From IMG/VR virus record IMGVR_UViG_2529292922_000010: DNA of 64,000 nucleotides, one strand, 5' to 3'. The translations under genes were made by a program, and so were the position numbers. Shown here one piece after another: positions 4,373 to 56,109 of this stretch (within the stretch, counting starts at the first letter, position 1; each line of letters begins with the position of its first letter). The notes below the pieces were generated by a model. The model did not search any database. It had not been told where the DNA came from and was given only the letters and a program-made list of their open reading frames with translations. This stretch comes from a virus. Lineage: Duplodnaviria; Heunggongvirae; Uroviricota; Caudoviricetes.

Positions 4373-4633
4373 TCAGAGATCAGCTTTATGCAGAATTTTA
4401 TCCACCAGCGATGTGATTTTTTCTGCCAGGTCATCATTACTTACCCAATCCTGGCGGGCAGCCAGAACGGGCGACAAGGCTAATATTAACTCTCGTCGTA
4501 ATGATACGTTCCTTGCTACAGGCGGAATACGTGGTGCTGGTGGTGGTTTAAGCCCCTCGCTCCCTTGTATTTCTGGAGTATTCGGCTGATAGCCATTAGT
4601 TATTTTCGGCGGTATTGGACGAGGACGAAACAT
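4373..4633 (-). CDS. Pro-rich small protein, 86 aa
   Basis: ATG at 4633 with AGGAGG RBS 7 nt upstream; the longer track ORF (to 4753) lacks an RBS. Confidence 0.45.
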   Translation of the reverse strand: MFRPRPIPPKITNGYQPNTPEIQGSEGLKPPPAPRIPPVARNVSLRRELILALSPVLAARQDWVSNDDLAEKITSLVDKILHKADL

Positions 4634-4637
4634 CGCG

Positions 4638-4934
4638 CTACCTCCTACACTCAGGGCAGGTGTTCCCTTCCGCAAAGTAGGGGAAACTGCTATCAAGTTC
4701 ATCACACCATCTGCGATGCTCGTAGCACCAAAAAGCCTCCCACGGTAAACCAAAAGACTTCATCCACCGGGACACTCGATCTGGTATATCTGCTGGTGGC
4801 AGTTCTTCTGGCAATAATTTGCCTGATAATTCCCTTTCCGCCCGCGCCAGCATTCCTTTTAGACTCGCATTCTCTTTTTCAAGAATCTCTATGCGCGCCT
4901 GTAACTCAGCTTTCGTTGGCATGGCCCGCCTCAT
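4638..4934 (-). CDS. Hypothetical coiled-coil protein with C-terminal Cys cluster
   Basis: ELQARIEILEKENASLKGMLARAERE segment plus C...C...CPEC; start ambiguous (4922, 4934 or 5003). Confidence 0.4.
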   Translation of the reverse strand: MRRAMPTKAELQARIEILEKENASLKGMLARAERELSGKLLPEELPPADIPDRVSRWMKSFGLPWEAFWCYEHRRWCDELDSSFPYFAEGNTCPECRR

Positions 4935-5556
4935 GCTTATCAGCCACCAGCGGCAATAAAGCCCTGGCCATCTTATGAACCAATAGTGCATCAATAATGC
5001 CAAGCGTATGCCCCGGCTTAATGTTTAATGCCGCCTCAAGGTGACACCTTTCCAGGCCACTTTTCTCGGCTTGTTTATGATGATCTGGCGTAATAACGTC
5101 GCCCAAAACACGGCTAATTTTTTCTCGTAATTGCTGGGTGCCAGCACACTTGATCGCTGTATCGTGGATGCGGTTAACCAGTTCGCGATAAACATGCGGC
5201 TTAATTCGGATACGTTCACCGGTGACGCCCTTTCCTGGCGCTGGCACCGAACTATCCGGAATATCCGGATAGTTGCCAGCCTCGTAAGCTACCCGCAGCC
5301 AGTGCATGAATGTTTCAGTGGACACACAACCGCAGTCCACATCGATTTTCGCGCGTTGCTGTTCCAGCCACTGCTCAAAATTCAATCTACACGTATTACT
5401 TTCATGTTGCTCTTTTTGTCTCAAGGCCAGCATCTGCTGGGCTATTTCCAATACTTCATCTGCCGTATATCCAGCACCGTGACCATACATTTCGATACGG
5501 GAAATAATCTCTGATATACGCTCTTCAGTGATTCTGGTCATTTCTTTTTGCGCCAT
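4906..5556 (-). CDS. Hypothetical protein, 216 aa
   Basis: Long ORF; short overlaps with both neighbours indicate operon; no recognisable motif. Confidence 0.5.
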   Translation of the reverse strand: MAQKEMTRITEERISEIISRIEMYGHGAGYTADEVLEIAQQMLALRQKEQHESNTCRLNFEQWLEQQRAKIDVDCGCVSTETFMHWLRVAYEAGNYPDIPDSSVPAPGKGVTGERIRIKPHVYRELVNRIHDTAIKCAGTQQLREKISRVLGDVITPDHHKQAEKSGLERCHLEAALNIKPGHTLGIIDALLVHKMARALLPLVADKHEAGHANES

Positions 5557-5912
5557 TTCTTTTCACATTCCTTAGTCCATTTTTCAATGTTCATTTTGGC
5601 AATATCAGTCATTCCATCACCTAAGAAATACTTTTTCCGGTATGTCTTGCACTTAAACCACACTACAACAGCCACCAGCCAGAAAATAAAAGGCCATACA
5701 GCAATACCAACGACAGCCGCGATAAAGCCCAATAGCCATAAATGAAGCTCTCCAACTTCTGTTTCCGGCAATATTCTTAAAGAATTAAACAGCAGGCTGA
5801 ACGAATGGTCGTATGCATTGGCAGTATAAGACATGCAATCCATATAATTAAAGTCATAGCCTGCGGCTGCCGCCCATAATGGGCGGTCAAGAAAATGTTT
5901 TAGTGTCATCAT
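5538..5912 (-). CDS. Membrane protein, 124 aa
   Basis: Hydrophobic span LWLLGFIAAVVGIAVWPFIFWLVAVVVWF followed by Lys-rich tail. Confidence 0.5.
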   Translation of the reverse strand: MMTLKHFLDRPLWAAAAGYDFNYMDCMSYTANAYDHSFSLLFNSLRILPETEVGELHLWLLGFIAAVVGIAVWPFIFWLVAVVVWFKCKTYRKKYFLGDGMTDIAKMNIEKWTKECEKKWRKKK

Positions 5913-5918
5913 ATAAAT

Positions 5919-6212
5919 TTAAGGTTCAGACCAGTTATCTTCAATAGCAATGCTTAATCTTTGTAGCCATTCTGCTAATTTCAGCATTGCTTCTCTTTCG
6001 CTTAAACCACGAGGAAAATCATCAAGTGAAATTGTTGGCTTGAATCCCCCGTAATTATCCATTTCAACTGTCAGATTTTGTTCCAGCACGGTATTTCTTA
6101 CGCGGCTATTGTGCCGGAGCAAATATACTGAACGTGATTTATTGGTTTTGTGGTCTAGCTTATATTCGGTAAGTATCATCTGGCTTTTGCCATGACTATT
6201 ACCTCTCCACAT
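5919..6212 (-). CDS. Hypothetical protein, 97 aa
   Basis: ATG at 6212 has a GAGG RBS; the track ORF start at 6308 has none. Confidence 0.45.
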   Translation of the reverse strand: MWRGNSHGKSQMILTEYKLDHKTNKSRSVYLLRHNSRVRNTVLEQNLTVEMDNYGGFKPTISLDDFPRGLSEREAMLKLAEWLQRLSIAIEDNWSEP

Positions 6213-45847: not shown

Positions 45848-46885
45848 TTAACCTATTGCTACTGGTTTTAACAAACCAGCATCAAGTAGCTTGCGAGTTA
45901 ACCACTGCTGGCCTTTACCCGTTAATTGGGGCGTCAGCCGTATCTGGTAGCCATTTTCATCATCCAGCACCACTTCTTTCACCGTGAAATACCCGGCGTT
46001 GATGTACTGTTGGCGCGGTACGTTTTTGCGCGCACCAAAAGCCATGAGAATGCCGTTCTGGCGCAACCATGAGAAAAGGGCGTTTTGCTTAAGTCCAACG
46101 ACCTTTGCAAAGTTCCCGATCAGGATTCCATTAGCCACTGATACCCGGTCGGCAAAATCGACTTTAGGGGCTGCGGCCACCAGCTGTTGTTCCAGCTGCA
46201 TTTTCTGTTCTGCCAACTCGGCAGCCAGGCGTAGAGCTTCTGGTAATGTTTGGGGGATCGATGGGGCAGGGGAGTTTGTCTGCTGCAATTCTTCCAGTTT
46301 GTCGATCAGCGAACGGCGGACCGCTTTTGACTCGCGCGCGGCGACTCGCAGGGCTTGTTTGAAAGTCATGGTTATGACAAGCATTGATGTTTTGTTCATT
46401 TTTTCCACTACACTTTTTGTGTAGTGCTCACCATCAAGCTCATCGAGTATTTTTTCGATGAATTTGTTGTTCCGAACCTCTGGTTCCCCACATAACTTAC
46501 GCGCTTCATTGACCATCTTTAACAGTGTCAGGCTGTCGATTGTGTCTCCGGTGTTGGAGATAACATTCACTGCTGGTGATGGCGTAGCTGAAGCAACAGG
46601 TGCTGGTTTTTCAACATTCAAATTATTACCGGTCATTCTGCGCGCCTCCTTTCTCATTTCTGCTGCCACTGTTGCGTAACGTAGACGTCCTTGTTCAATC
46701 AAATAATCCCTGATCTCGGCTATCAGTAGCCTGTTGATCACAGCCTTATCTGTTCGGGTATAAAAACGTCTGGTTATCATGAAATAGTTGGCAATTGCGC
46801 CGGGGATCTCCCGTGTCGGCATACAGGTTGTATGCAAAGCGATCGCTTCGGCTATTTCATTACGGGTGACGAGAGGTGTTTTCAT
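45848..46885 (-). CDS. ant: Antirepressor with KilA-C/Bro-C-like C-terminal domain
   Basis: 345 aa; C-terminal ~130 aa parallels KilA (ALRLAAELAEQK...GKGQQWL). Confidence 0.75.
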   Translation of the reverse strand: MKTPLVTRNEIAEAIALHTTCMPTREIPGAIANYFMITRRFYTRTDKAVINRLLIAEIRDYLIEQGRLRYATVAAEMRKEARRMTGNNLNVEKPAPVASATPSPAVNVISNTGDTIDSLTLLKMVNEARKLCGEPEVRNNKFIEKILDELDGEHYTKSVVEKMNKTSMLVITMTFKQALRVAARESKAVRRSLIDKLEELQQTNSPAPSIPQTLPEALRLAAELAEQKMQLEQQLVAAAPKVDFADRVSVANGILIGNFAKVVGLKQNALFSWLRQNGILMAFGARKNVPRQQYINAGYFTVKEVVLDDENGYQIRLTPQLTGKGQQWLTRKLLDAGLLKPVAIG

Positions 46886-47103
46886 AAACCCCCCTGAACG
46901 TTGGCAGAGAAGGGGAGGCTCCAGTAACTAAGTGAATTGCGCGAGTCAGTTGAAAAACGGGCAGTAAAAATGCAGGGGCCATCAGGCAATTGAGAGCGTG
47001 CTTCGTCTTCAGTTGCTGCGATAACGAAGTGATAGTGGTGTTTTTTACAGGAATAGAAACGCCAGATGAATTCTGGGCGTGCGCAAGGATTGGCATTAAC
47101 CAT
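46882..47103 (-). CDS. icd: Icd-like small protein of immI operon
   Basis: 73 aa; stop overlaps ant start. Confidence 0.5.
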   Translation of the reverse strand: MVNANPCARPEFIWRFYSCKKHHYHFVIAATEDEARSQLPDGPCIFTARFSTDSRNSLSYWSLPFSANVQGGL

Positions 47104-47417
47104 AGTTACGGCCTCACAATCAGGTTTAACAACCTGCTACCCGCTGCTAAACAGGTGGCAGGACGTGACGGGGTTAGCAGACTGGCGATTGTGAAACCAG
47201 CAGGCCGAAGCCTCCCCATCACGCCCCACCATAATTTGGGCGTAACGCGGTTTTACGGACACAAAAATACCGCAATATCGGATATCTGCGGCTGTCCGCA
47301 CAATCATTCAGGCTGCTAAACCCGGTCGCAGAATTTGCTACGACGGCGGAACTATAAGCCTGAACGATTAAAAGGTCAATATGATGCGAAAAGATAGCAT
47401 TCGCGACTTAAAAATAC

Positions 47418-47434
47418 AAATCTATTAGAGCATT
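47418..47434 (-). promoter_or_regulatory. C1-repressor operator-like site at head of immI region
   Basis: Minus strand AATGCTCTAATAGATTT (15/17). Confidence 0.5.
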
Positions 47435-47530
47435 ATCTGATTAGTAAATACACAACTGGATCTAATAACCTCTTTTTTTTAAAGGCGAAAATATGTACCC
47501 TAAATGAGTTATAAGGCAGGTGAGGTTATA

Positions 47531-48178
47531 ATGAGAAAACTATTACTACCGTTATTATTTATGGCTGGGACTGTTAATGCAGCATCAAGCGTAAAGGAGA
47601 TTTGTACCGATTATACGAAATACCTTGGGCACGTTTACGGCTTTGCTGTCAGTCAAGACGAATCCATGCGCAAGAAGTTACTGTCAGATATGAAACGCCT
47701 TAAACTTTCTGAAGCGATGGTGCAGCAAGAACTGTATAAAGTCGCAACCAACGAAAATGCTAAATATCAATATTCTCGCCTGTTAAATCCCGACGCAAAC
47801 GAGATCAATCGAAGCTCTTTCGATTATATGGTAAAGGCATGCGAAACCGCTCCTGATTTTGCTATTCCTAGCTGGGGTGTGCTGGTGGCGAGCAATGCCG
47901 TTAATAAAGAAGACGTTGGAAGAAATGGCATTGATTCAATCAGAAACTCACCGGGAATGCGCCATCAAAACGTTCAGGGTACGCTTGAAGAACGGGCCAG
48001 GGGGCCGGGTACAAACTCCCCAATGGGAAACCTCTCCCCGGAGGAATTGCAAGAGTATAACCAACGGATGGAGCAGTATGAGAAAGCTGCACGCGAAAAA
48101 ATGGAACAACAAAAAAACGGATCTCTTAATACTTTCCAGCAAGGTTTAAAAGCGCTTAATTTACCCTATGAATGGTGA
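47531..48178 (+). CDS. Secreted protein, 215 aa
   Basis: ATG 47531 with GGTGAGG RBS; signal peptide MRKLLLPLLFMAGTVNA; shares a motif with Sit. Confidence 0.5.
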   Translation: MRKLLLPLLFMAGTVNAASSVKEICTDYTKYLGHVYGFAVSQDESMRKKLLSDMKRLKLSEAMVQQELYKVATNENAKYQYSRLLNPDANEINRSSFDYMVKACETAPDFAIPSWGVLVASNAVNKEDVGRNGIDSIRNSPGMRHQNVQGTLEERARGPGTNSPMGNLSPEELQEYNQRMEQYEKAAREKMEQQKNGSLNTFQQGLKALNLPYEW

Positions 48179-48229
48179 ATATATGGTGGTTAACTAATTA
48201 AAATATTAATATCCAAAGGAGATAAATTA

Positions 48230-48706
48230 ATGCGCATCAAACGATTTTTACTAGTTATTGCTTTGCTTACTCCGTTTTCATCAATGGCAAATGTAAGCAA
48301 ATGGTCAACCGGCGAGACTCATGGTGTTCGTTCTTATGCTGTTTCCAGCAAAGATAATTATACGCTTACATTTGAGTGCGATGTTGGATTTAATAATACG
48401 GATCCCAATCAAGTAGGAACACGACTACTCACTCTCATGAAAACAGAACCTGGCGGTGAGTCATTTGATGCTAAAAAAGAACAAATAACGCTGAAAGTTG
48501 GTGATGATGAATATCCTATCAGTTCTATCGGTTCCTCTGTGGGTGATAGTTACTGGTATGGTTTTTGGTCAGATACCCCTGATATGGAAGTTAAAACATT
48601 CGATGCATACGTAGACGGAAAAAAAATCGCAACATTTACGCTACGTAAGGCCGCAGAGCTTTTCAACGCGGCACCTGAAGATGGCTGCCTGAAGCGCGCA
48701 AAATGA
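48230..48706 (+). CDS. Secreted protein, 158 aa
   Basis: Signal peptide MRIKRFLLVIALLTPFSSMA; AAGGAG RBS. Confidence 0.5.
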   Translation: MRIKRFLLVIALLTPFSSMANVSKWSTGETHGVRSYAVSSKDNYTLTFECDVGFNNTDPNQVGTRLLTLMKTEPGGESFDAKKEQITLKVGDDEYPISSIGSSVGDSYWYGFWSDTPDMEVKTFDAYVDGKKIATFTLRKAAELFNAAPEDGCLKRAK

Positions 48707-48740
48707 CCTGTCACAAATGACTACTCGTAGAATCGGTTAA

Positions 48741-49331
<591 letters not shown>

Positions 49332-49341
49332 GGGGGCTGAT

Positions 49342-49953
49342 ATGGGGCTTAATGTTGCTTCAGTAAAGTCTTATGTATCTTCGGCATTAACGACGACATT
49401 ATTTGGCTCCGGCGTTGGTGAGCGGGAAGTTGGTAAGCTGACGTCAATCATCATGAACAAAATGCTGTTCGCGCAAGGATGGCAGTTCTCTGTCGAAGTT
49501 GATGGTCTGGAGGGGGCAGACTTCTTTGCTAAAGACATTACCTACCACGATTACAGCATCGAATATGAAACGATTAAAATCGGCGGAGGGAATATCCTTC
49601 AGCCAACGGAGCGTTCGCCTGGGCAGATAACAATGATGGTCAGGGATACCGTTGATGGCCTCGTTTTGGACTGGTTTAAGACGGCAAAAGGTCGGGTGAT
49701 CAATCCGGACGGTACCGGGAATATACCGTCTAAATATTTGCTCAATGTGCGTATTTATCGGTTGCTGTCCTCCGGTTTAACCAAACTGGAAAATGAGATG
49801 ACGGTATTCCCGGTCACTACCGGCGATGTCACCTATGCGCGGGATCAGGTTACGGAATTTAAGTCATTCCCAATGACCTTCGCATTGCACAGCACGTTTA
49901 ACCAATCCTCAAGTTCTTTAGCTTCCCTTCTGGGCTTTAGTTTTTCTCTTTGA
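49342..49953 (+). CDS. Hypothetical late protein, 203 aa
   Basis: ORF in late operon. Confidence 0.5.
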   Translation: MGLNVASVKSYVSSALTTTLFGSGVGEREVGKLTSIIMNKMLFAQGWQFSVEVDGLEGADFFAKDITYHDYSIEYETIKIGGGNILQPTERSPGQITMMVRDTVDGLVLDWFKTAKGRVINPDGTGNIPSKYLLNVRIYRLLSSGLTKLENEMTVFPVTTGDVTYARDQVTEFKSFPMTFALHSTFNQSSSSLASLLGFSFSL

Positions 49954-49967
49954 ATTAAGGAGCAAGG

Positions 49968-50849
49968 ATGCTTTTACCTCTTTTCCCGCTACCATCGCGG
50001 CCAACTGAATTGATCCAGTTCCGTCAGCCAAATATTGCTGATGCGATGCGTTTCAACTCGATAACACCGGAGGAACAAGAACAACAGACAACGGCGTATT
50101 TAAAAGCCTTGCTGGCTGAACCCGCGAAATATGATCCCCTGACATGGACGGCGCAGGACCGGATTACCGCGTTATGGTGGATATTTACTGGCTCCCGTGA
50201 AACACCGGTCGAGACATTCACCTACACCTGTAAACATTGCGGTAAAGAGCATTATTACGATTGCGATATGAATGCTCTGGCTGAAGATATCCAGGTCCTG
50301 GAAGTGGAACCGTTCATTGACGATATTGAGGTGTCTGTAGAGGGCGTGCCTTATCAATGGCGTATCGTGCCGCTTGATGGTTGGGCAATGGAAATGCTGG
50401 AGATGCGCCGTGCAGCATTGCCACCTGAAGACGACGCGGAATTCAAAGAAGCGATCGTTGATTTGCGTTTTTGGGAATTCGCTTATCAGTGTGAACTTTA
50501 TAACGATGTTAGCGGTACTCGTGAAGAGCAGGCTGAGCGTCGTTATGAAACGATCAAACGGATGGCCATTGATACTGAATTTATGAAGCTGGCGGCACAC
50601 ATCCGGCTGGCTCATGAAAAGCTCGAACATGGTTTACCGTGCTACATCGATAAAGGCGAAATGCGTCTTCGTCTCCCGCCGCACAAATGCCCAAACCAGG
50701 ATACAAAGGAGTCCACAGAGGGTGCGTATACCCGTCTGTGGGTGCCCTTTCGGGCTACCGACTTCATTCCACAGGTGGGGATTGAAAAGCTATCAGACCT
50801 TAGTGTCCAACCTGGTTTTGTATGGGGGTATACCGATTCAGGACGCTGA
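49968..50849 (+). CDS. Hypothetical late protein with CxxC pairs, 293 aa
   Basis: AAGGAG RBS; CKHCGK...CDM; immediately upstream of sit. Confidence 0.5.
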   Translation: MLLPLFPLPSRPTELIQFRQPNIADAMRFNSITPEEQEQQTTAYLKALLAEPAKYDPLTWTAQDRITALWWIFTGSRETPVETFTYTCKHCGKEHYYDCDMNALAEDIQVLEVEPFIDDIEVSVEGVPYQWRIVPLDGWAMEMLEMRRAALPPEDDAEFKEAIVDLRFWEFAYQCELYNDVSGTREEQAERRYETIKRMAIDTEFMKLAAHIRLAHEKLEHGLPCYIDKGEMRLRLPPHKCPNQDTKESTEGAYTRLWVPFRATDFIPQVGIEKLSDLSVQPGFVWGYTDSGR

Positions 50850-50930
50850 AAGGCTCACTGAATCCTATGCGTTTTTCCTGTTGGAGAAACTGGAAGAAAA
50901 ACTTAAACCGAAGCGGTAGGCGATAAGATC

Positions 50931-53900
50931 ATGGAAAGAAAAAACGCCAACATTGACGATGTGATAAGGACGGTTGAAACCGCCAGCGCAAAAGAGCTGG
51001 AAGAGCTTGCAGGTATTCGGGAAGCCGTTGAAGATTTGAAAGGTGGGCGAGTTGCTACAGTTGATCCTGTCTCTCGCAGTGTGTCGGCATTAAATCGCAC
51101 AATCGAAAATTCCCGGCCAGACTTTGTGGCCAATGCGCCATCAGTGGACCCTATTGTTGAGGCAATGAAACGGCTTAATTTAGGGGACGTTTCTCGTGTA
51201 GTTCAGGAGGATGTTGCTCTACAGGAACCGCAGGCCAAATCAACTACGCGAAAGGGTAAAAAACGACGCAAGAAGGCTATAACAGAAGATGTAAAGGCGC
51301 AACGGACCGAAGCAGCCGAACACGCTCGCGAAATGTTCGGTCAAAAAGGCGGTGCGCAAAAAAGCCAAAACCAACGCGATGCGCGTGGTCGTTTTATTGG
51401 AAAGTCAGGGAGTAAGGCCGCAGCGGAAGATGCCCGTGCTGAACGTGCTGAAAAGGCCAGGCGCAAAGAGGATGATGAGCGTCTAAATGCTGAATCAGGT
51501 TTATTAAAAAAACTGTCAAAAGTAGCTGAAGGCATAGGTAACCCTTCAGAGACTCGTGCCGTCGATGCGTTAGGTTATGCCGTTGCTGGTCCATTGTGGG
51601 CAGCAGGGAAGGAGCTTGGCGGGATATCAAAAGAAGTTGGTGGATCGCTTAATGGTGCCAGAAAGTCTATTGCCGATGTGATTCGTGGCAATGACGATAA
51701 CAGCCGTAGAAAAGGTTTTTTTAGGCGTAAATCGCAAAATAGTGCCGATGTCGTTCAGGTTAACACCCAAAAACGGACGGTTCAGGAACTTCAGGAGCAG
51801 ACCAGCGAAATTAAAGAGGGCAATGACAAGATTCTCCGCGCCCTTGATCAGATAGCCAAAAACACCGGGAAAAAGAAGGGCGGCTTGCTGTCCAAACTAT
51901 TTAGCCTGTTAGGGAAGGGGGCCGGTGGCGTCGCGTCGTTGTTAATGGGGCGTGGCATGCTGAAAAAAGCTGGAGCACTCGCTTTTGGCGCTCTGGGGGC
52001 AAAGAAACTTGTAGGAATGCTACGCGGTGGTGGCAAGAAGACTCTCGCCCATGAAGGCGGAGATTTGGCTGCCCGGGCAGCAGGTAAACTTGGATTAAAG
52101 GCAGTTGGTAAAGGGGCGTTACGCGCAATTCCCCTAGTCGGCACAGTGGCTGGAGGTATTTATGATGCGGTAACCGGTTGGAATGATACAGAAGCGCAAC
52201 GTCGAGCGTTTGGGCTTAAATCAGGACAAGATCCATCATTCCAGCAAAAAGCCGCTTATACGTTAGCTAATGTTCTTGATATGGGGGGACTGGTATCTGG
52301 TATTAGCAGCGCCATTGGTGAGGTTCTCAAATCACTTGGATTTGAGGATATCGGCAATATGTTGCAATCATTTTCGACGGAAAGTATTGCCCAGGCCATT
52401 GATAGTGGGATTACCAACTTAGAAACATATATTTCTAACCTTGGCGACACCATTTCTACCAAGTTCGATGATTACACAGCAAAGATTGGTGATGCTGTTT
52501 CAGCATGGTTTAGCGATACATCTAATAAGCTGCTTGAAAAGCTGGATGCCATCAAAGACTTCTTTACTGTCGATAACCTGAAACAGGTTTTCAGTGATGC
52601 AATTGATAGTGCAATTGATTTCATTAAGAACCCAGGGAAACATATTAAAGAGGCGGCTGGTAATATTTGGGATGGGGTTAAAAATTTCCCCGGTAAAGCA
52701 TTAGATGCAGCGGTTGATGCCGTTAAAAATACCCCTGCGGCAATGATTGTATCAAAAATACCCAATCCGATCGGCGAGGCTAATGCGAAAGAAATCACTC
52801 CAGAGTTAAAAGCTCCGGTTAATAGCCACCAGGAGACATCTGATTCTAAAACTGAATCCGATGCCAAACAGACTAATATTGTTACCCGCGTGATAAATGC
52901 GGCACTGGACACGGCGAAAGATAGCAATAAAACAGTTAAAGAAACTGCTAATCAGATTATCAATGCAAATGCCGTAGAAACGGGCAATAGCGCGTTGCAG
53001 AAAATTGATAAAGCTATTGGTCAAAATAGCTCGTCATCATCGTCGCTTAATACCACTGGCACCAGGAATGACATTCAGAAAGCTGCGGATACCTACAACA
53101 ATGGCAACTTGGATGTAAAAGTCGGAAGTCTTGGCGCTGAAGGTAAGGCAAATCTCGATAAGTTGGCTCCGTATTTTGCCGAACTAGAGAATAAATACGG
53201 TCTTCCAGAAGGCACTCTTTACGCGATTGCTGCAACTGAATCTGGTGGTAATCCGTATGCAAAATCCCAAACCGGTGCTCTGGGGATGTTTCAGTTCACG
53301 GGGATTGCTCGTGAAGAGACTGGCTTAGCTGAAGGTGAATCGTTTGATCCTGTGAAATCGGCAGAAGCTGCGGCTCTTCTCATGAGCAAATATCTGAAGC
53401 AAGCCAATGGAGACTTAAACGAGGCCATCACTGCATATAATGCTGGGTTTGGCACTATCAATAAGTGGAAAAAAGGCACAGGTGACTTATCGAAAGAAAA
53501 CCGTGAGTACGCGATCAAGGTCAATACTCATCGTGCTCGCTATTTAGGTGGTGAAATCTATACACCTGGAGCAGGAGCACAGGGTGGGGCGCAATATGGA
53601 GTGAGGGGACCACTGCCTGATAACGCTGTTATCGATCAGTCTACTGGCCTGGCGTTTACCCCTGGTGATAGCCCGTTTGAGAAAGGCGGTCTGGTAGACA
53701 AAATTGGCAATGCTGTTGGCGTTAACGATCTGGTCAACAAATTCATGAATGGCCGGGGTATGCGTCGGGAAGTCGTTCAGGGAACGCTCGAAGAACGTGC
53801 ACGAGGGAAGGGGACCGCAACAGCAGCTGGCAATGTGTATGTTGATACTCCGATGCCAGTTGAAGAGGCGCGTCCGGTGGCCAGCAACTCAAGTTACTTT

Positions 53901-54323
53901 GACCAACTCGGCGCACAAATGGGGATTGATGGACTATTTGATAAACTCCGCAACTCGCCGGGGATGCGGAAAAATAATGCGCCTGAACCAGCCTCCACGT
54001 CCCAGGTGACGACTGCCGCCAACGATTTGCAGCAACCAACCGGTCGTATGCAGATAGACGGACAGGTTATTAGTGACCTTGGCGGCTCCGGTGCCAAGCC
54101 GACAATGCAGTTGGCTGATAATACCGTTTCACTTGATGGTGAAACGAAGCGGCTGTTTGCGCAGATGACCTCATTGCTTGCCAGGATTGAAGAGCACACT
54201 AAAGACTCGGCGAAAGGCCAGGGAACTGTCGTAAAGGTCAGCACGCCTCAACCGGGCGTTATGCGCACGGTGCCACTGTCAATTGATGATCCGTTGATGA
54301 ATGACTACGCGAGAGTTGATTGA
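50931..54323 (+). CDS. sit: Sit-like tape-measure / injection transglycosylase
   Basis: 1130 aa; internal lytic transglycosylase motif (AIAATESGGNPYA...GALGMFQF...YNAG). Confidence 0.8.
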   Translation: MERKNANIDDVIRTVETASAKELEELAGIREAVEDLKGGRVATVDPVSRSVSALNRTIENSRPDFVANAPSVDPIVEAMKRLNLGDVSRVVQEDVALQEPQAKSTTRKGKKRRKKAITEDVKAQRTEAAEHAREMFGQKGGAQKSQNQRDARGRFIGKSGSKAAAEDARAERAEKARRKEDDERLNAESGLLKKLSKVAEGIGNPSETRAVDALGYAVAGPLWAAGKELGGISKEVGGSLNGARKSIADVIRGNDDNSRRKGFFRRKSQNSADVVQVNTQKRTVQELQEQTSEIKEGNDKILRALDQIAKNTGKKKGGLLSKLFSLLGKGAGGVASLLMGRGMLKKAGALAFGALGAKKLVGMLRGGGKKTLAHEGGDLAARAAGKLGLKAVGKGALRAIPLVGTVAGGIYDAVTGWNDTEAQRRAFGLKSGQDPSFQQKAAYTLANVLDMGGLVSGISSAIGEVLKSLGFEDIGNMLQSFSTESIAQAIDSGITNLETYISNLGDTISTKFDDYTAKIGDAVSAWFSDTSNKLLEKLDAIKDFFTVDNLKQVFSDAIDSAIDFIKNPGKHIKEAAGNIWDGVKNFPGKALDAAVDAVKNTPAAMIVSKIPNPIGEANAKEITPELKAPVNSHQETSDSKTESDAKQTNIVTRVINAALDTAKDSNKTVKETANQIINANAVETGNSALQKIDKAIGQNSSSSSSLNTTGTRNDIQKAADTYNNGNLDVKVGSLGAEGKANLDKLAPYFAELENKYGLPEGTLYAIAATESGGNPYAKSQTGALGMFQFTGIAREETGLAEGESFDPVKSAEAAALLMSKYLKQANGDLNEAITAYNAGFGTINKWKKGTGDLSKENREYAIKVNTHRARYLGGEIYTPGAGAQGGAQYGVRGPLPDNAVIDQSTGLAFTPGDSPFEKGGLVDKIGNAVGVNDLVNKFMNGRGMRREVVQGTLEERARGKGTATAAGNVYVDTPMPVEEARPVASNSSYFDQLGAQMGIDGLFDKLRNSPGMRKNNAPEPASTSQVTTAANDLQQPTGRMQIDGQVISDLGGSGAKPTMQLADNTVSLDGETKRLFAQMTSLLARIEEHTKDSAKGQGTVVKVSTPQPGVMRTVPLSIDDPLMNDYARVD

Positions 54324-54679
54324 TGGCCAACAATAACGAAATTGATCCTTTGCTGACGCTGGAGTTATCCGGCGTAAAAACGTATGAGTCCCAGGAGGAG
54401 GCCTGGGGCGCTCGTTTATATGAGTGGCTAAACACTTATCAGGGTGAGGTATACGGAGATCCGTCATGGGGCAATGTTTTACCGCAGTTTAAACACGAAC
54501 CGACCAACTTGTCGCATGTTCAAATTGCGGTTGAGGCAATGCTTTTGCAAAAACTGACGGTAGATTTACCCGACATACCGATTTCTGGCTTGTCAGTAGC
54601 CGAGGGAGATGCTTTTGATAAGTTGAAAATATCCATTCGTATCAGGGATATAACTATCACACAGGACGTGGTGCTATGA
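54320..54679 (+). CDS. Baseplate wedge gp25/gpW-like protein, 119 aa
   Basis: Size and position right after tape measure; start overlaps sit stop. Confidence 0.5.
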   Translation: MMANNNEIDPLLTLELSGVKTYESQEEAWGARLYEWLNTYQGEVYGDPSWGNVLPQFKHEPTNLSHVQIAVEAMLLQKLTVDLPDIPISGLSVAEGDAFDKLKISIRIRDITITQDVVL

Positions 54680-56109
54680 GTAAAACAACACCTACTAAAG
54701 ACAGTATTCGTGCAGAGTTTGAAGAGCTTGTCGAGAAAGATTCATTCTGGTCGAAGTTTGTCGGCTCTCAATTTGTCTCGATGCTGACATTGTTTATTAC
54801 CCAGATTGTCTACAGGTGCTTTCAGTATGCCGATGCGGCGCTGGCTGAAGGCTTTATATCGACCGCGACGCGGCGTTCTTCTATCCTGGCAGCGGCAGAA
54901 ACGAATAGTTACGTTGGTACCAAGCCAACACCGTCATCGGGGATGATTGAGATCACCGCCACAAGTGAAGATGCCCCAGCGGTAATCCCCAAAAATATGC
55001 CTTTAATATCTGACGACCAGTATCCTTACATGACTATGGATGTATGCAGGTTGGTTGACGGCACCGGTACGGTAGAAGTGGCACAGTTGGAAATCCAGGA
55101 GGTGACATATACCGTTACGGCAGCCAAAGAATTTCTGGAAGTCGTGTTATCAAAGGCTCTCACTGCTGTCTGCTATAAGCTGGAAGTATTCGTGACGACC
55201 GATGGTAAGACCACGCAGTGGTCTTCCAGCACTATGTTCCGGTTAGCCGGTAGTAAAAGCCAGGTCTACGTTGAGTTTTATAAACCATCCGAGCAGTTGG
55301 GGGTTCGATTCGGTGATGGGCTAATTGGGCAAATACCGCCAGAAGGCTCGACCATTACGCTTAAGGTATGGTGCACCAACGGCGATATAACCCTGGTTGC
55401 TGGCCAAAACCTGACGCCTGTCGATTCTGCGGCTAATTTAGCTAATTTGATTTCAGTTAAGACAACGACACCTATAACCGCAGGTACCGATGCCGAAACA
55501 ACGGAGATCACACGTAACCGTGCACAATATTACCTTGCCTATGATGATCAGGTCGTATGGGGCGGGGACTATACGTATTTTCTGGTGCGTAACATCCCGG
55601 GACTGTCCTGGGTAAAGGCATGGGGCGAAGGCCAGCAAGAGAAATTAGATGGTGCTTATAATGTTCGGAATATCAATAAGATATTTATTTCAGGATGGCA
55701 TCCAAACAAAAGCCAGTCAGAGCTTGAAGAAATGATCCTGGCTGCCTTTAAGAAGGTGCCGAATGAGTTGAACAAGAAATTCTCGTATAAAGAGGTCAGA
55801 AAACTCCCCTTTAAGATCACCATCACTGGGCGGATATCGGCAAGCCTGACCATTGAGAACGTGACTGATGAGCTGAAGTCGGCACTGGAAACAAAATTTG
55901 GGCGTGACTCAACTTTCTTTGATCCGAACCGTGTCGGCAAGTACATCCTAATCAAGAAAAAAGACGTTTGGGCATTTATCGAAACGCTGGGTTATTTCCG
56001 CGACTTTTATCTGGAATTTGTCGAGTGGAATGAGTCCAACGGCTTTTACGATTTCGTTTATCTGGATACAGAAAACTCCACCTTTAATATTTCGTATGAG
56101 GAGGAGTGA
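54676..56109 (+). CDS. Baseplate J-like protein, 477 aa
   Basis: Size and position; overlaps neighbours by 4 nt. Confidence 0.5.
   Translation: MSKTTPTKDSIRAEFEELVEKDSFWSKFVGSQFVSMLTLFITQIVYRCFQYADAALAEGFISTATRRSSILAAAETNSYVGTKPTPSSGMIEITATSEDAPAVIPKNMPLISDDQYPYMTMDVCRLVDGTGTVEVAQLEIQEVTYTVTAAKEFLEVVLSKALTAVCYKLEVFVTTDGKTTQWSSSTMFRLAGSKSQVYVEFYKPSEQLGVRFGDGLIGQIPPEGSTITLKVWCTNGDITLVAGQNLTPVDSAANLANLISVKTTTPITAGTDAETTEITRNRAQYYLAYDDQVVWGGDYTYFLVRNIPGLSWVKAWGEGQQEKLDGAYNVRNINKIFISGWHPNKSQSELEEMILAAFKKVPNELNKKFSYKEVRKLPFKITITGRISASLTIENVTDELKSALETKFGRDSTFFDPNRVGKYILIKKKDVWAFIETLGYFRDFYLEFVEWNESNGFYDFVYLDTENSTFNISYEEE

Follow-up and report, generated by a model that had tools for sequence, protein, structure and literature searches.

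A conserved peptide shared by the tape-measure protein Sit and an exported protein of the sim locus in a P1-like phage-plasmid

The DNA considered here (the window) is a stretch of 64,000 nucleotides (nt) from IMG/VR record IMGVR_UViG_2529292922_000010, recognised as DNA of a P1-like phage-plasmid (Punavirus); all positions are counted from its first letter. Two of its proteins carry the same peptide of about 34 amino acids (aa): Sit, the tape-measure protein (PMC9024508), and a 215-aa protein with export signals, called the exported protein below, whose gene lies in the sim locus and outside the late operon. The peptide is real, it is selectively maintained in both proteins, it is limited to these two families, and it is predicted to be exposed in each of them. 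Why, then, should a protein of the sim locus carry a piece of the tail?

The exported gene in the sim slot

Bases 46800-54700 are 99.1% identical to Escherichia phage vB_EcoM-Ro157c2YLVW and, one replaced block excepted, 97-98% identical to P1 and P7, from whose annotations the gene order was assigned. The features on which the argument turns are the following.

47418..47434, strand not given: equivalent of Oc4, a C1 operator, AAATCTATTAGAGCATT, placed from the P1 annotation by the constant offset in the colinear alignment
47440..47466, + strand: equivalent of PsimA, a predicted sigma-70 promoter mapped from the P1 annotation
47531..48178, + strand: open reading frame (ORF) of the exported protein, 215 aa, phrog_3933 (PHROG match E=1e-136)
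47531..47581, + strand: Sec-type signal peptide read directly from the sequence, MRKLLLPLLFMAGTVNA, with predicted cleavage before AS
47588..47905, + strand: conserved, predicted all-helical N-domain of the exported protein, aa 20-125
47933..48034, + strand: Sit-like linear motif of the exported protein, aa 135-168, DSIRNSPGMRHQNVQGTLEERARGPGTNSPMGNL
48715..48733, + strand: late promoter LPsit, AAATGACTACTCGTAGAAT, a 19-mer identical to the annotated LPsit of P1
50931..54323, + strand: sit, 1130 aa, phrog_2533, 97-99% DNA identity to sit of P1 and P7
53172..53501, + strand: SLT domain of Sit, aa 748-857 (Pfam PF01464, E=9e-27)
53736..53837, + strand: motif copy 1 of Sit, aa 936-969, NKFMNGRGMRREVVQGTLEERARGKGTATAAGNV
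53919..53990, + strand: motif copy 2 of Sit, partial, aa 997-1020, MGIDGLFDKLRNSPGMRKNNAPEP

LPsit opens the late pmgC-tub-pmgB-sit operon and lies downstream of the exported gene as well as of a second ORF with export signals that follows it, so that the sequence-only reading erred in assigning both motif-bearing proteins to one late operon. The exported gene instead fills the variable slot between Oc4/c4-icd-ant and LPsit, which in P1 holds simA-simB-simC. In P1-like phage-plasmids this sim (superimmunity) region is known to vary and to be low in GC, and it counts as their variable region 4 (PMC9603915); in the window the GC fraction falls to 0.36-0.43 there. Oc4 stands at the border to the divergent c4-icd-ant (immI) region and differs from its P1 counterpart (AAATTTATTAGAGCATT) at one position. 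The PsimA equivalent keeps the -10 hexamer TCTAAT, and its -35 hexamer is ATTAGT as against TTTAAT in P1. Oc4 is located 6 bp from the -35 hexamer of this predicted promoter, and given that spacing C1 might affect expression of the exported gene.

The window is colinear with P1 from the c4 promoter and Oc4 through the first 143 nt of simA. Counted from ATG 47504, the start used in the P1 simA annotation and an alternative upstream start for the exported gene, these 143 nt match P1 simA with isolated mismatches only (e.g. GGC/GCC). The two sequences part at about 47647; past this breakpoint P1 simA diverges and terminates, and simB and simC follow. At the protein level, P1 SimA and the exported protein are 94% identical over 50 aa (BLASTP). 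Judged from this alignment, the 52-aa simA of P1 (L001 2204-2362) is the 5' remnant of a gene for a 215/224-aa exported protein, which explains the database name 'simA domain protein' for relatives of the intact form. P1 simA is annotated as 'putative superimmunity accessory function', a label based on position alone. In PLSDB, 267 P1-like plasmids match the exported gene, and 84 of them cover at least 80% of it; others encode the N-domain and the motif with a different tail, and many a 48-aa stub only. No description of the motif or of an intact simA gene was found in the published literature.

In each of the ten related loci that were fetched, the exported gene is followed by pmgC-tub-pmgB-sit, in most cases with a YfjT-family gene in between. 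Upstream of it lie ant/icd in seven loci and the structural operon directly in two (L007 and L008); the contig of the tenth (L015) opens immediately ahead of the gene, so that its downstream side alone is visible. This last locus (480-2214), from a relative of the Salmonella type, contains, in a row, a long simA of 179 aa with the full motif, a 114-aa SimB-like ORF and a SimC homologue with 44% identity to P1 SimC, an arrangement that suggests an ancestral simA-simB-simC operon from which most of simA was lost in P1. The exported protein has no detectable homology to SimB or to P7 Upf50.0/50.5, and neither these proteins nor SimC show homology to Sit, so that among proteins encoded by the sim locus the exported protein alone resembles a virion protein.

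How is this protein built? Its signal peptide, read by eye, ends in a putative cleavage site between VNA and A and has no lipobox cysteine; in and beside it, N16, A17 and S19 are invariant across the family alignment. The signal peptide would suit export to the periplasm. Aa 20-125 are modelled by AlphaFold2 as a confident helical bundle, with a predicted local distance difference test score (pLDDT) of about 90; C25 and C104 are invariant in this N-domain, are likely to form a periplasmic disulfide and count as a further sign of export. The motif region is predicted to be disordered (pLDDT 45-62) and is followed by a modelled C-terminal helix at aa 170-208. The family is small, with 28 clusters at E<=0.001, and its larger contigs (~90 kb) are of Escherichia, Salmonella and Klebsiella origin. 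Common to all members are the signal peptide, the helical N-domain with C25 and C104, a linker whose length varies and the motif core N-[AS]-[PR]-G-M-R-[HQ]-Q, which in about half of them continues as V-[QE]-G-[TS]-L-x-x-R-A-[RY]-G-x-G.

Annotation by similarity gives little more. A PTP-like phytase domain (PF14566), precomputed on relatives, was considered and rejected: its score of 26.6 bits is below the Pfam cutoff of 27, there is no CX5R loop, the sole candidate cysteine (C104-ETAPDF) lacks an arginine at +6, and the model is all-helical over about 105 aa, with no beta-sheet core. Searches of PDB sequences with the motif and family profiles returned no match, and no similarity of sequence or fold was detected to known exclusion or defence families (Imm, gp15, Ltp, SieA; PADLOC set).

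Extent, constraint and context of the shared peptide

The sequence-only reading had picked out three peptides, all of which are present where it placed them: IRNSPGMRHQNVQGTLEERARGPGT (nt 47939-48013, aa 137-161 of the exported protein), NGRGMRREVVQGTLEERARGKGT (nt 53748-53816, Sit aa 940-962) and LRNSPGMRKNNAPEP (nt 53946-53990, Sit aa 1006-1020). It had described a conserved peptide of about 25 aa; the conservation holds, since diverged relatives of both proteins still have the motif, but the segment is larger, about 34 aa, and runs on to ...G-x-G-T-x-x-x-M/A-G-N. The full consensus of the Sit peptide is F-x-N-[SAG]-[RP]-G-M-R-H-[QE]-x-V-[QE]-G-T-L-x-E-R-A-[YR]-G-x-G-T-x-x-x-M-G-N. By pairwise BLASTP, the exported protein matches Sit copy 1 with 23/47 identities (E=6e-9) and copy 2 with E=0.006. 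The Sit family profile (phrog_2533) matches the exported protein (E=1.2e-7), phrog_3933 matches Sit (E=6.7e-6), and both cross-matches fall exactly on the shared segment. When the two family alignments (A1 and A6) were compared with hhalign, a single match of 34 columns was obtained (56% identity, probability 94.9%, E=4.3e-8), spanning aa 135-168 of the exported protein and aa 936-969 of Sit; outside it neither the profile-profile comparison nor BLASTP gave a further significant segment, i.e. no homology between the two proteins was found beyond the motif. When the window was scanned in six frames with a profile of the motif, these three sites alone scored, and as the profile includes both long copies, this result shows only that there is no fourth.

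The distribution of the peptide is just as narrow. A hidden Markov model (HMM) of the motif (A3) was run exhaustively on 1.84 billion representative proteins with a cut-off of E<=0.001, because a word-indexed search with a 42-aa motif profile had yielded 12 candidates and missed even Sit. The exhaustive search gave 11 matches: full-length tape-measure proteins of the Sit type (four), proteins of the exported family, among them a remote one of 176 aa (P0050), fragments of both, and one evidently spurious match to a repeat protein. With matches limited to Sit-like and exported families, the peptide is private to this pair. The remote exported protein P0050 (GSMAERARG) and a remote Sit, P0047 (GSMADRAYG), could not be paired: the P0050 contigs are about 1 kb long, and on the contig of P0047 the locus lacks a gene of this kind.

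Was one copy recently derived from the other? Five genomes have the complete motif in each of the two genes. Within them 15-17 of 29 residues are common to both copies, the codon is shared at only 2-6 of 14-16 identical degenerate residues, which is about chance level, and nucleotide identity is 47-61%; these figures rule out recent duplication or gene conversion. Local duplication of recent date, which the sequence-only reading had named as what would undo its proposal, is thus not the explanation: synonymous divergence is saturated while constraint on the amino acids is strong. The window's exported protein agrees with Sit of the Salmonella/Klebsiella type at 21-22 of 35 positions and with its own Sit at 19 of 35; P7 has an identical Sit segment and no gene for the exported protein. 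Across ten P1-like genomes the proportion of synonymous differences (pS) is 0.8-0.9, i.e. saturated, and the ratio of the nonsynonymous to the synonymous proportion (pN/pS) is as follows.

Exported protein: 0.17-0.18 in the folded N-domain, 0.42 in the linker that directly precedes the motif, 0.23 in the full motif and 0.19 in its core
Sit: 0.43 in the segment ahead of the motif and 0.19 in the motif

The motif is under purifying selection in both proteins. These values bear on the view that the likeness is an evolutionary relic, an old illegitimate recombination having copied a piece of sit into a neighbouring gene where it now has no function. The two genes are 2.7 kb apart in a recombination hot spot (PMC9603915), the exported gene is often truncated, and some database variants are frameshifted at the motif, all of which would suit a relic. 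However, although synonymous sites are saturated, constraint on the peptide equals that on the folded domain and is about twice that on the adjacent linker, and the GMR core persists in family members only 50% identical overall and even in the remote P0050. The selection data disfavour this explanation, and we consider it very unlikely.

In Sit, the motif lies between the SLT domain and the C-terminal domain. The sit gene is identified by its SLT domain, its length of about 1100 aa and its position between pmgB and pmgA/bplA; it is essential, whereas simABC are non-essential (PMC10695390), and the SLT domain provides a cell-wall-cleaving activity that the P1 spike lacks (PMC9024508). Within Sit aa 735-1130, AlphaFold2 gives a confident model for the SLT domain alone, and everything beyond about aa 875, both motif copies included, has a pLDDT below 50. 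Across 11 Sit relatives with identities down to 33%, the invariant positions between the SLT and the C-terminal domains are those of the motif and no others (G-M-R, G, R and G), which makes the motif the only invariant feature of this disordered stretch and offers a concrete site to mutate in Sit, just as the exported protein offers a concrete protein to test. With predicted disorder around it in both proteins, the peptide looks like a short linear motif.

The motif, with its primary function, belongs to Sit in the first place. Two distant P1-like phages (L013 and L014) encode a motif-bearing Sit (P0052 and P0047, the latter retaining RNAPGMRHQVATGSMADRAYG) and yet have no gene between the upstream structural operon and pmgC; since Sit keeps the motif in phages without the exported gene, it is the exported protein that holds the copy. 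In L013 and L014, structural genes for proteins of 567, 529, 271, 191 and 166 aa abut pmgC, and no ant/icd or exported-protein genes are called between them.

The partial second copy is restricted to the Escherichia coli P1/P7 lineage and is absent from the Sit proteins of 1074-1094 aa in Salmonella and Klebsiella relatives. It lies in extra sequence of the P1/P7-type Sit (1130-1140 aa, as against 1074-1094 aa elsewhere) and reads LINARGMRSNNSPQP in P1 and LRNSPGMRKNNAPEP in the window and P7. One distant Sit (P0052) has two GMRHQV copies, independently of that lineage.

Repetition of this kind is typical of polymer-binding modules, and it occurs in both P0052 and the P1/P7-lineage Sit; the motif, moreover, comes after a peptidoglycan-cleaving domain. 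It might accordingly be asked whether the peptide anchors both proteins to the envelope or binds peptidoglycan, as a shared localisation module that implies no antagonism between them. However, it matches no known cell-wall-binding family, 34 residues of predicted disorder are unlike known peptidoglycan-binding domains, and it would be left unexplained why a localisation tag should be private to two families among the 1.84 billion proteins searched. We regard such an anchor as quite unlikely.

The same linear, disordered and conserved inter-domain position would equally suit a common processing or chaperone-recognition site, at which one protease or chaperone acts on Sit, during assembly or after ejection, and on the exported protein as well. 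Certain tape-measure proteins of other phages (lambda gpH, T5 pb2) are processed at their C-terminal ends, which counts in favour of this possibility. However, Sit matures in the cytoplasm as tails are assembled, and the exported protein would do so elsewhere, after Sec export, so that the one compartment where an enzyme could act on both is the periplasm, once Sit has been ejected. The paper on the P1 virion proteome, which contains no peptide map, gives for Sit its predicted full-length mass of 120.6 kDa and mentions no cleavage. A common processing or recognition site is, in our estimate, improbable. Of the three functions offered by the sequence-only reading (a processing site, a shared interaction peptide or a peptidoglycan-targeting element), the interaction peptide fits best with a motif lying in a disordered, exposed context in both proteins.

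Mimicry of Sit as a possible principle of exclusion

Both the passage of P1 DNA across the periplasm and the exclusion of superinfecting P1 by sim have been open questions since the 1980s, and the 270 residues of Sit that follow the SLT domain carry no functional assignment. A conserved and presumably exposed copy of a Sit peptide, encoded at an exclusion locus, is most simply read as a mimic, and the reading that we tentatively favour, without calling it probable, is that the exported protein acts as a periplasmic mimic of the Sit peptide and hinders genome delivery by superinfecting P1-like phages. More doubtful is a further step, namely that this is decoy exclusion by a prophage through mimicry of the injection machinery, in which the Sit residues GMRHQ-V-G-T-L-x-E-R-A engage a periplasmic or inner-membrane partner required for delivery of the P1 genome.

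Such a mechanism could be pictured as follows. The exported protein would be expressed in the lysogen and reside in its periplasm, where its small helical domain would display the peptide on a flexible linker. When the tail of a related phage contracts, the part of Sit between the SLT domain and the C terminus would enter that compartment; the periplasm of the attacked cell is the only place where the exported protein and virion Sit could be expected to meet. There, the resident peptide may compete for the partner of the Sit peptide, be it a component of the host envelope or another part of Sit; alternatively, it may join or dock onto the incoming Sit itself. In either case cell-wall passage or channel formation would stall, no DNA would enter, and the outcome would be an exclusion phenotype.

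These thoughts invite comparison with exclusion systems described elsewhere, of which the nearest is the P1 sim region, located like the exported gene between Oc4/c4-icd-ant and LPsit. P1 SimC, the protein tied experimentally to exclusion, has a hydrophobic, signal-peptide-like N-terminus as the exported protein does, and Sim itself undergoes processing and export; the window, by contrast, has no simB or simC and carries a YfjT-like gene instead. In T4, Imm binds the tape-measure protein directly and stops genome delivery, and after contraction the tape measure leaves the tube with its C-terminal part ahead, which then engages the inner membrane (bioRxiv 10.64898/2026.03.06.709160). Imm is therefore a phage-encoded envelope protein acting on the ejected part of a tape measure, and the target proposed here would be the equivalent region of Sit. 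It differs in that it is integral to the inner membrane, has a folded helical-bundle domain as its binding target and copies no tape-measure sequence; no homology between Imm and the exported protein was found, and the mimicry proposed for the latter would be a principle other than binding. HK97 gp15, TP-J34 Ltp and P22 SieA act via tape-measure or ejection proteins; these three and Tuc2009 Sie2009 are expressed from prophages, located in the envelope and block DNA entry after adsorption, and phages escape all four through changes in tape-measure or ejection proteins (PMC10883804). In being prophage-encoded and located in the envelope, they resemble the role proposed for the exported protein. 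Mimicry is at present a hypothesis, and if it holds, it would be a variant of tape-measure-directed exclusion.

A further parallel leads to a rival. T4 Spackle is a periplasmic inhibitor of the tail lysozyme gp5. Spackle is small, exported and helical, as is predicted of the exported protein, and its target is tail-borne cell-wall cleavage, which in P1 is the province of the SLT domain of Sit (PMC9024508). Spackle differs in having no peptide in common with its target, and no structural or sequence similarity between it and the exported protein was detected. By analogy, the exported protein could be a tethered inhibitor whose N-domain is the active part (e.g. on the SLT domain or another ejected component), with the peptide docking onto the incoming Sit by peptide-peptide association or by occupying an intramolecular site; exclusion would then come about without competition for a third partner. 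We judge this unlikely.

Several points weigh against the mimic, and most of them also against the tethered inhibitor. SimC, the proven determinant in P1, is unrelated to the exported protein (BLASTP best E=26; PHROGs 14355 vs 3933), and P1 and many relatives hold only the stub, so that the exported protein is dispensable. The remaining half or so of its family keep the N-x-x-G-M-R-x-Q core and then diverge into cysteine-containing tails; a decoy would thus need the core only. The PsimA equivalent is a weak prediction transferred from the P1 annotation, and a consensus promoter scan missed it. The exported protein has no match in PADLOC, Pfam, NCBIfam, PDB or BFVD, and pairs of motif copies within one genome do not resemble each other significantly more than pairs drawn across genomes (permutation P=0.06-0.08, n=5; P=0.2-0.4, n=10). 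Finally, its tie to exclusion is drawn from locus and sequence and is to that extent presumptive.

What would follow from either outcome? If mimicry is correct, it would represent a new exclusion principle, in which a decoy of the target takes the place of a binder, and it would open a route to the partner, of host or phage origin, that a myophage tape-measure protein engages. Should it fail, the corrected annotation stands, i.e. P1 simA as a remnant and an intact gene outside the late operon, together with a defined motif in Sit.

Neighbouring genes and sequence variants

The remaining genes around the exported gene and sit were placed as follows, from the P1 and P7 annotations unless stated otherwise.

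45848-47103 plus RNA region, - strand: ant1/icd/c4
48230..48706, + strand: second exported ORF, 158 aa, phrog_3429 (ORF; PHROG match)
48765-49331: pmgC
49342-49953: tub
49968-50849: pmgB
after sit: pmgA and bplA

The second exported ORF (48230-48706) bears a signal peptide and is 34% identical (E=7e-34) to a gene annotated as PF27224 (YfjT) in one of the related loci (L009); it had no match in the local copy of Pfam. Next after the long-simA gene, 8 of the 10 related loci have a gene of the YfjT family (two copies in L016), and it is conceivable that the exported protein and the product of the YfjT-like ORF act as a pair. On the other side of the slot, four loci (L006, L009, L010 and L016) contain toxin-antitoxin modules of the PrlF/YhaV or Gp49/HI1420-downstream type beside ant, at about 4500-6200, adjoining the sim slot; in these Salmonella P1-like elements they are a further sign that accessory genes collect there.

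Two kinds of database entry deserve a comment. A 194-aa partial protein (P0041), a motif-bearing C-terminal fragment of Sit, is labelled Bacillus altitudinis in NCBI/UniRef; given its close likeness to the enterobacterial-type Sit P0047, it is probably a contamination or a mislabelled contig. Three variants of the exported protein (P0002, P0007 and P0008) are frameshifted at or just past the motif and continue in the +1 frame, which corresponds to the 47859-48149 ORF of the window; all three come from read-archive assemblies, and they could be assembly errors or genuine pseudogenes.

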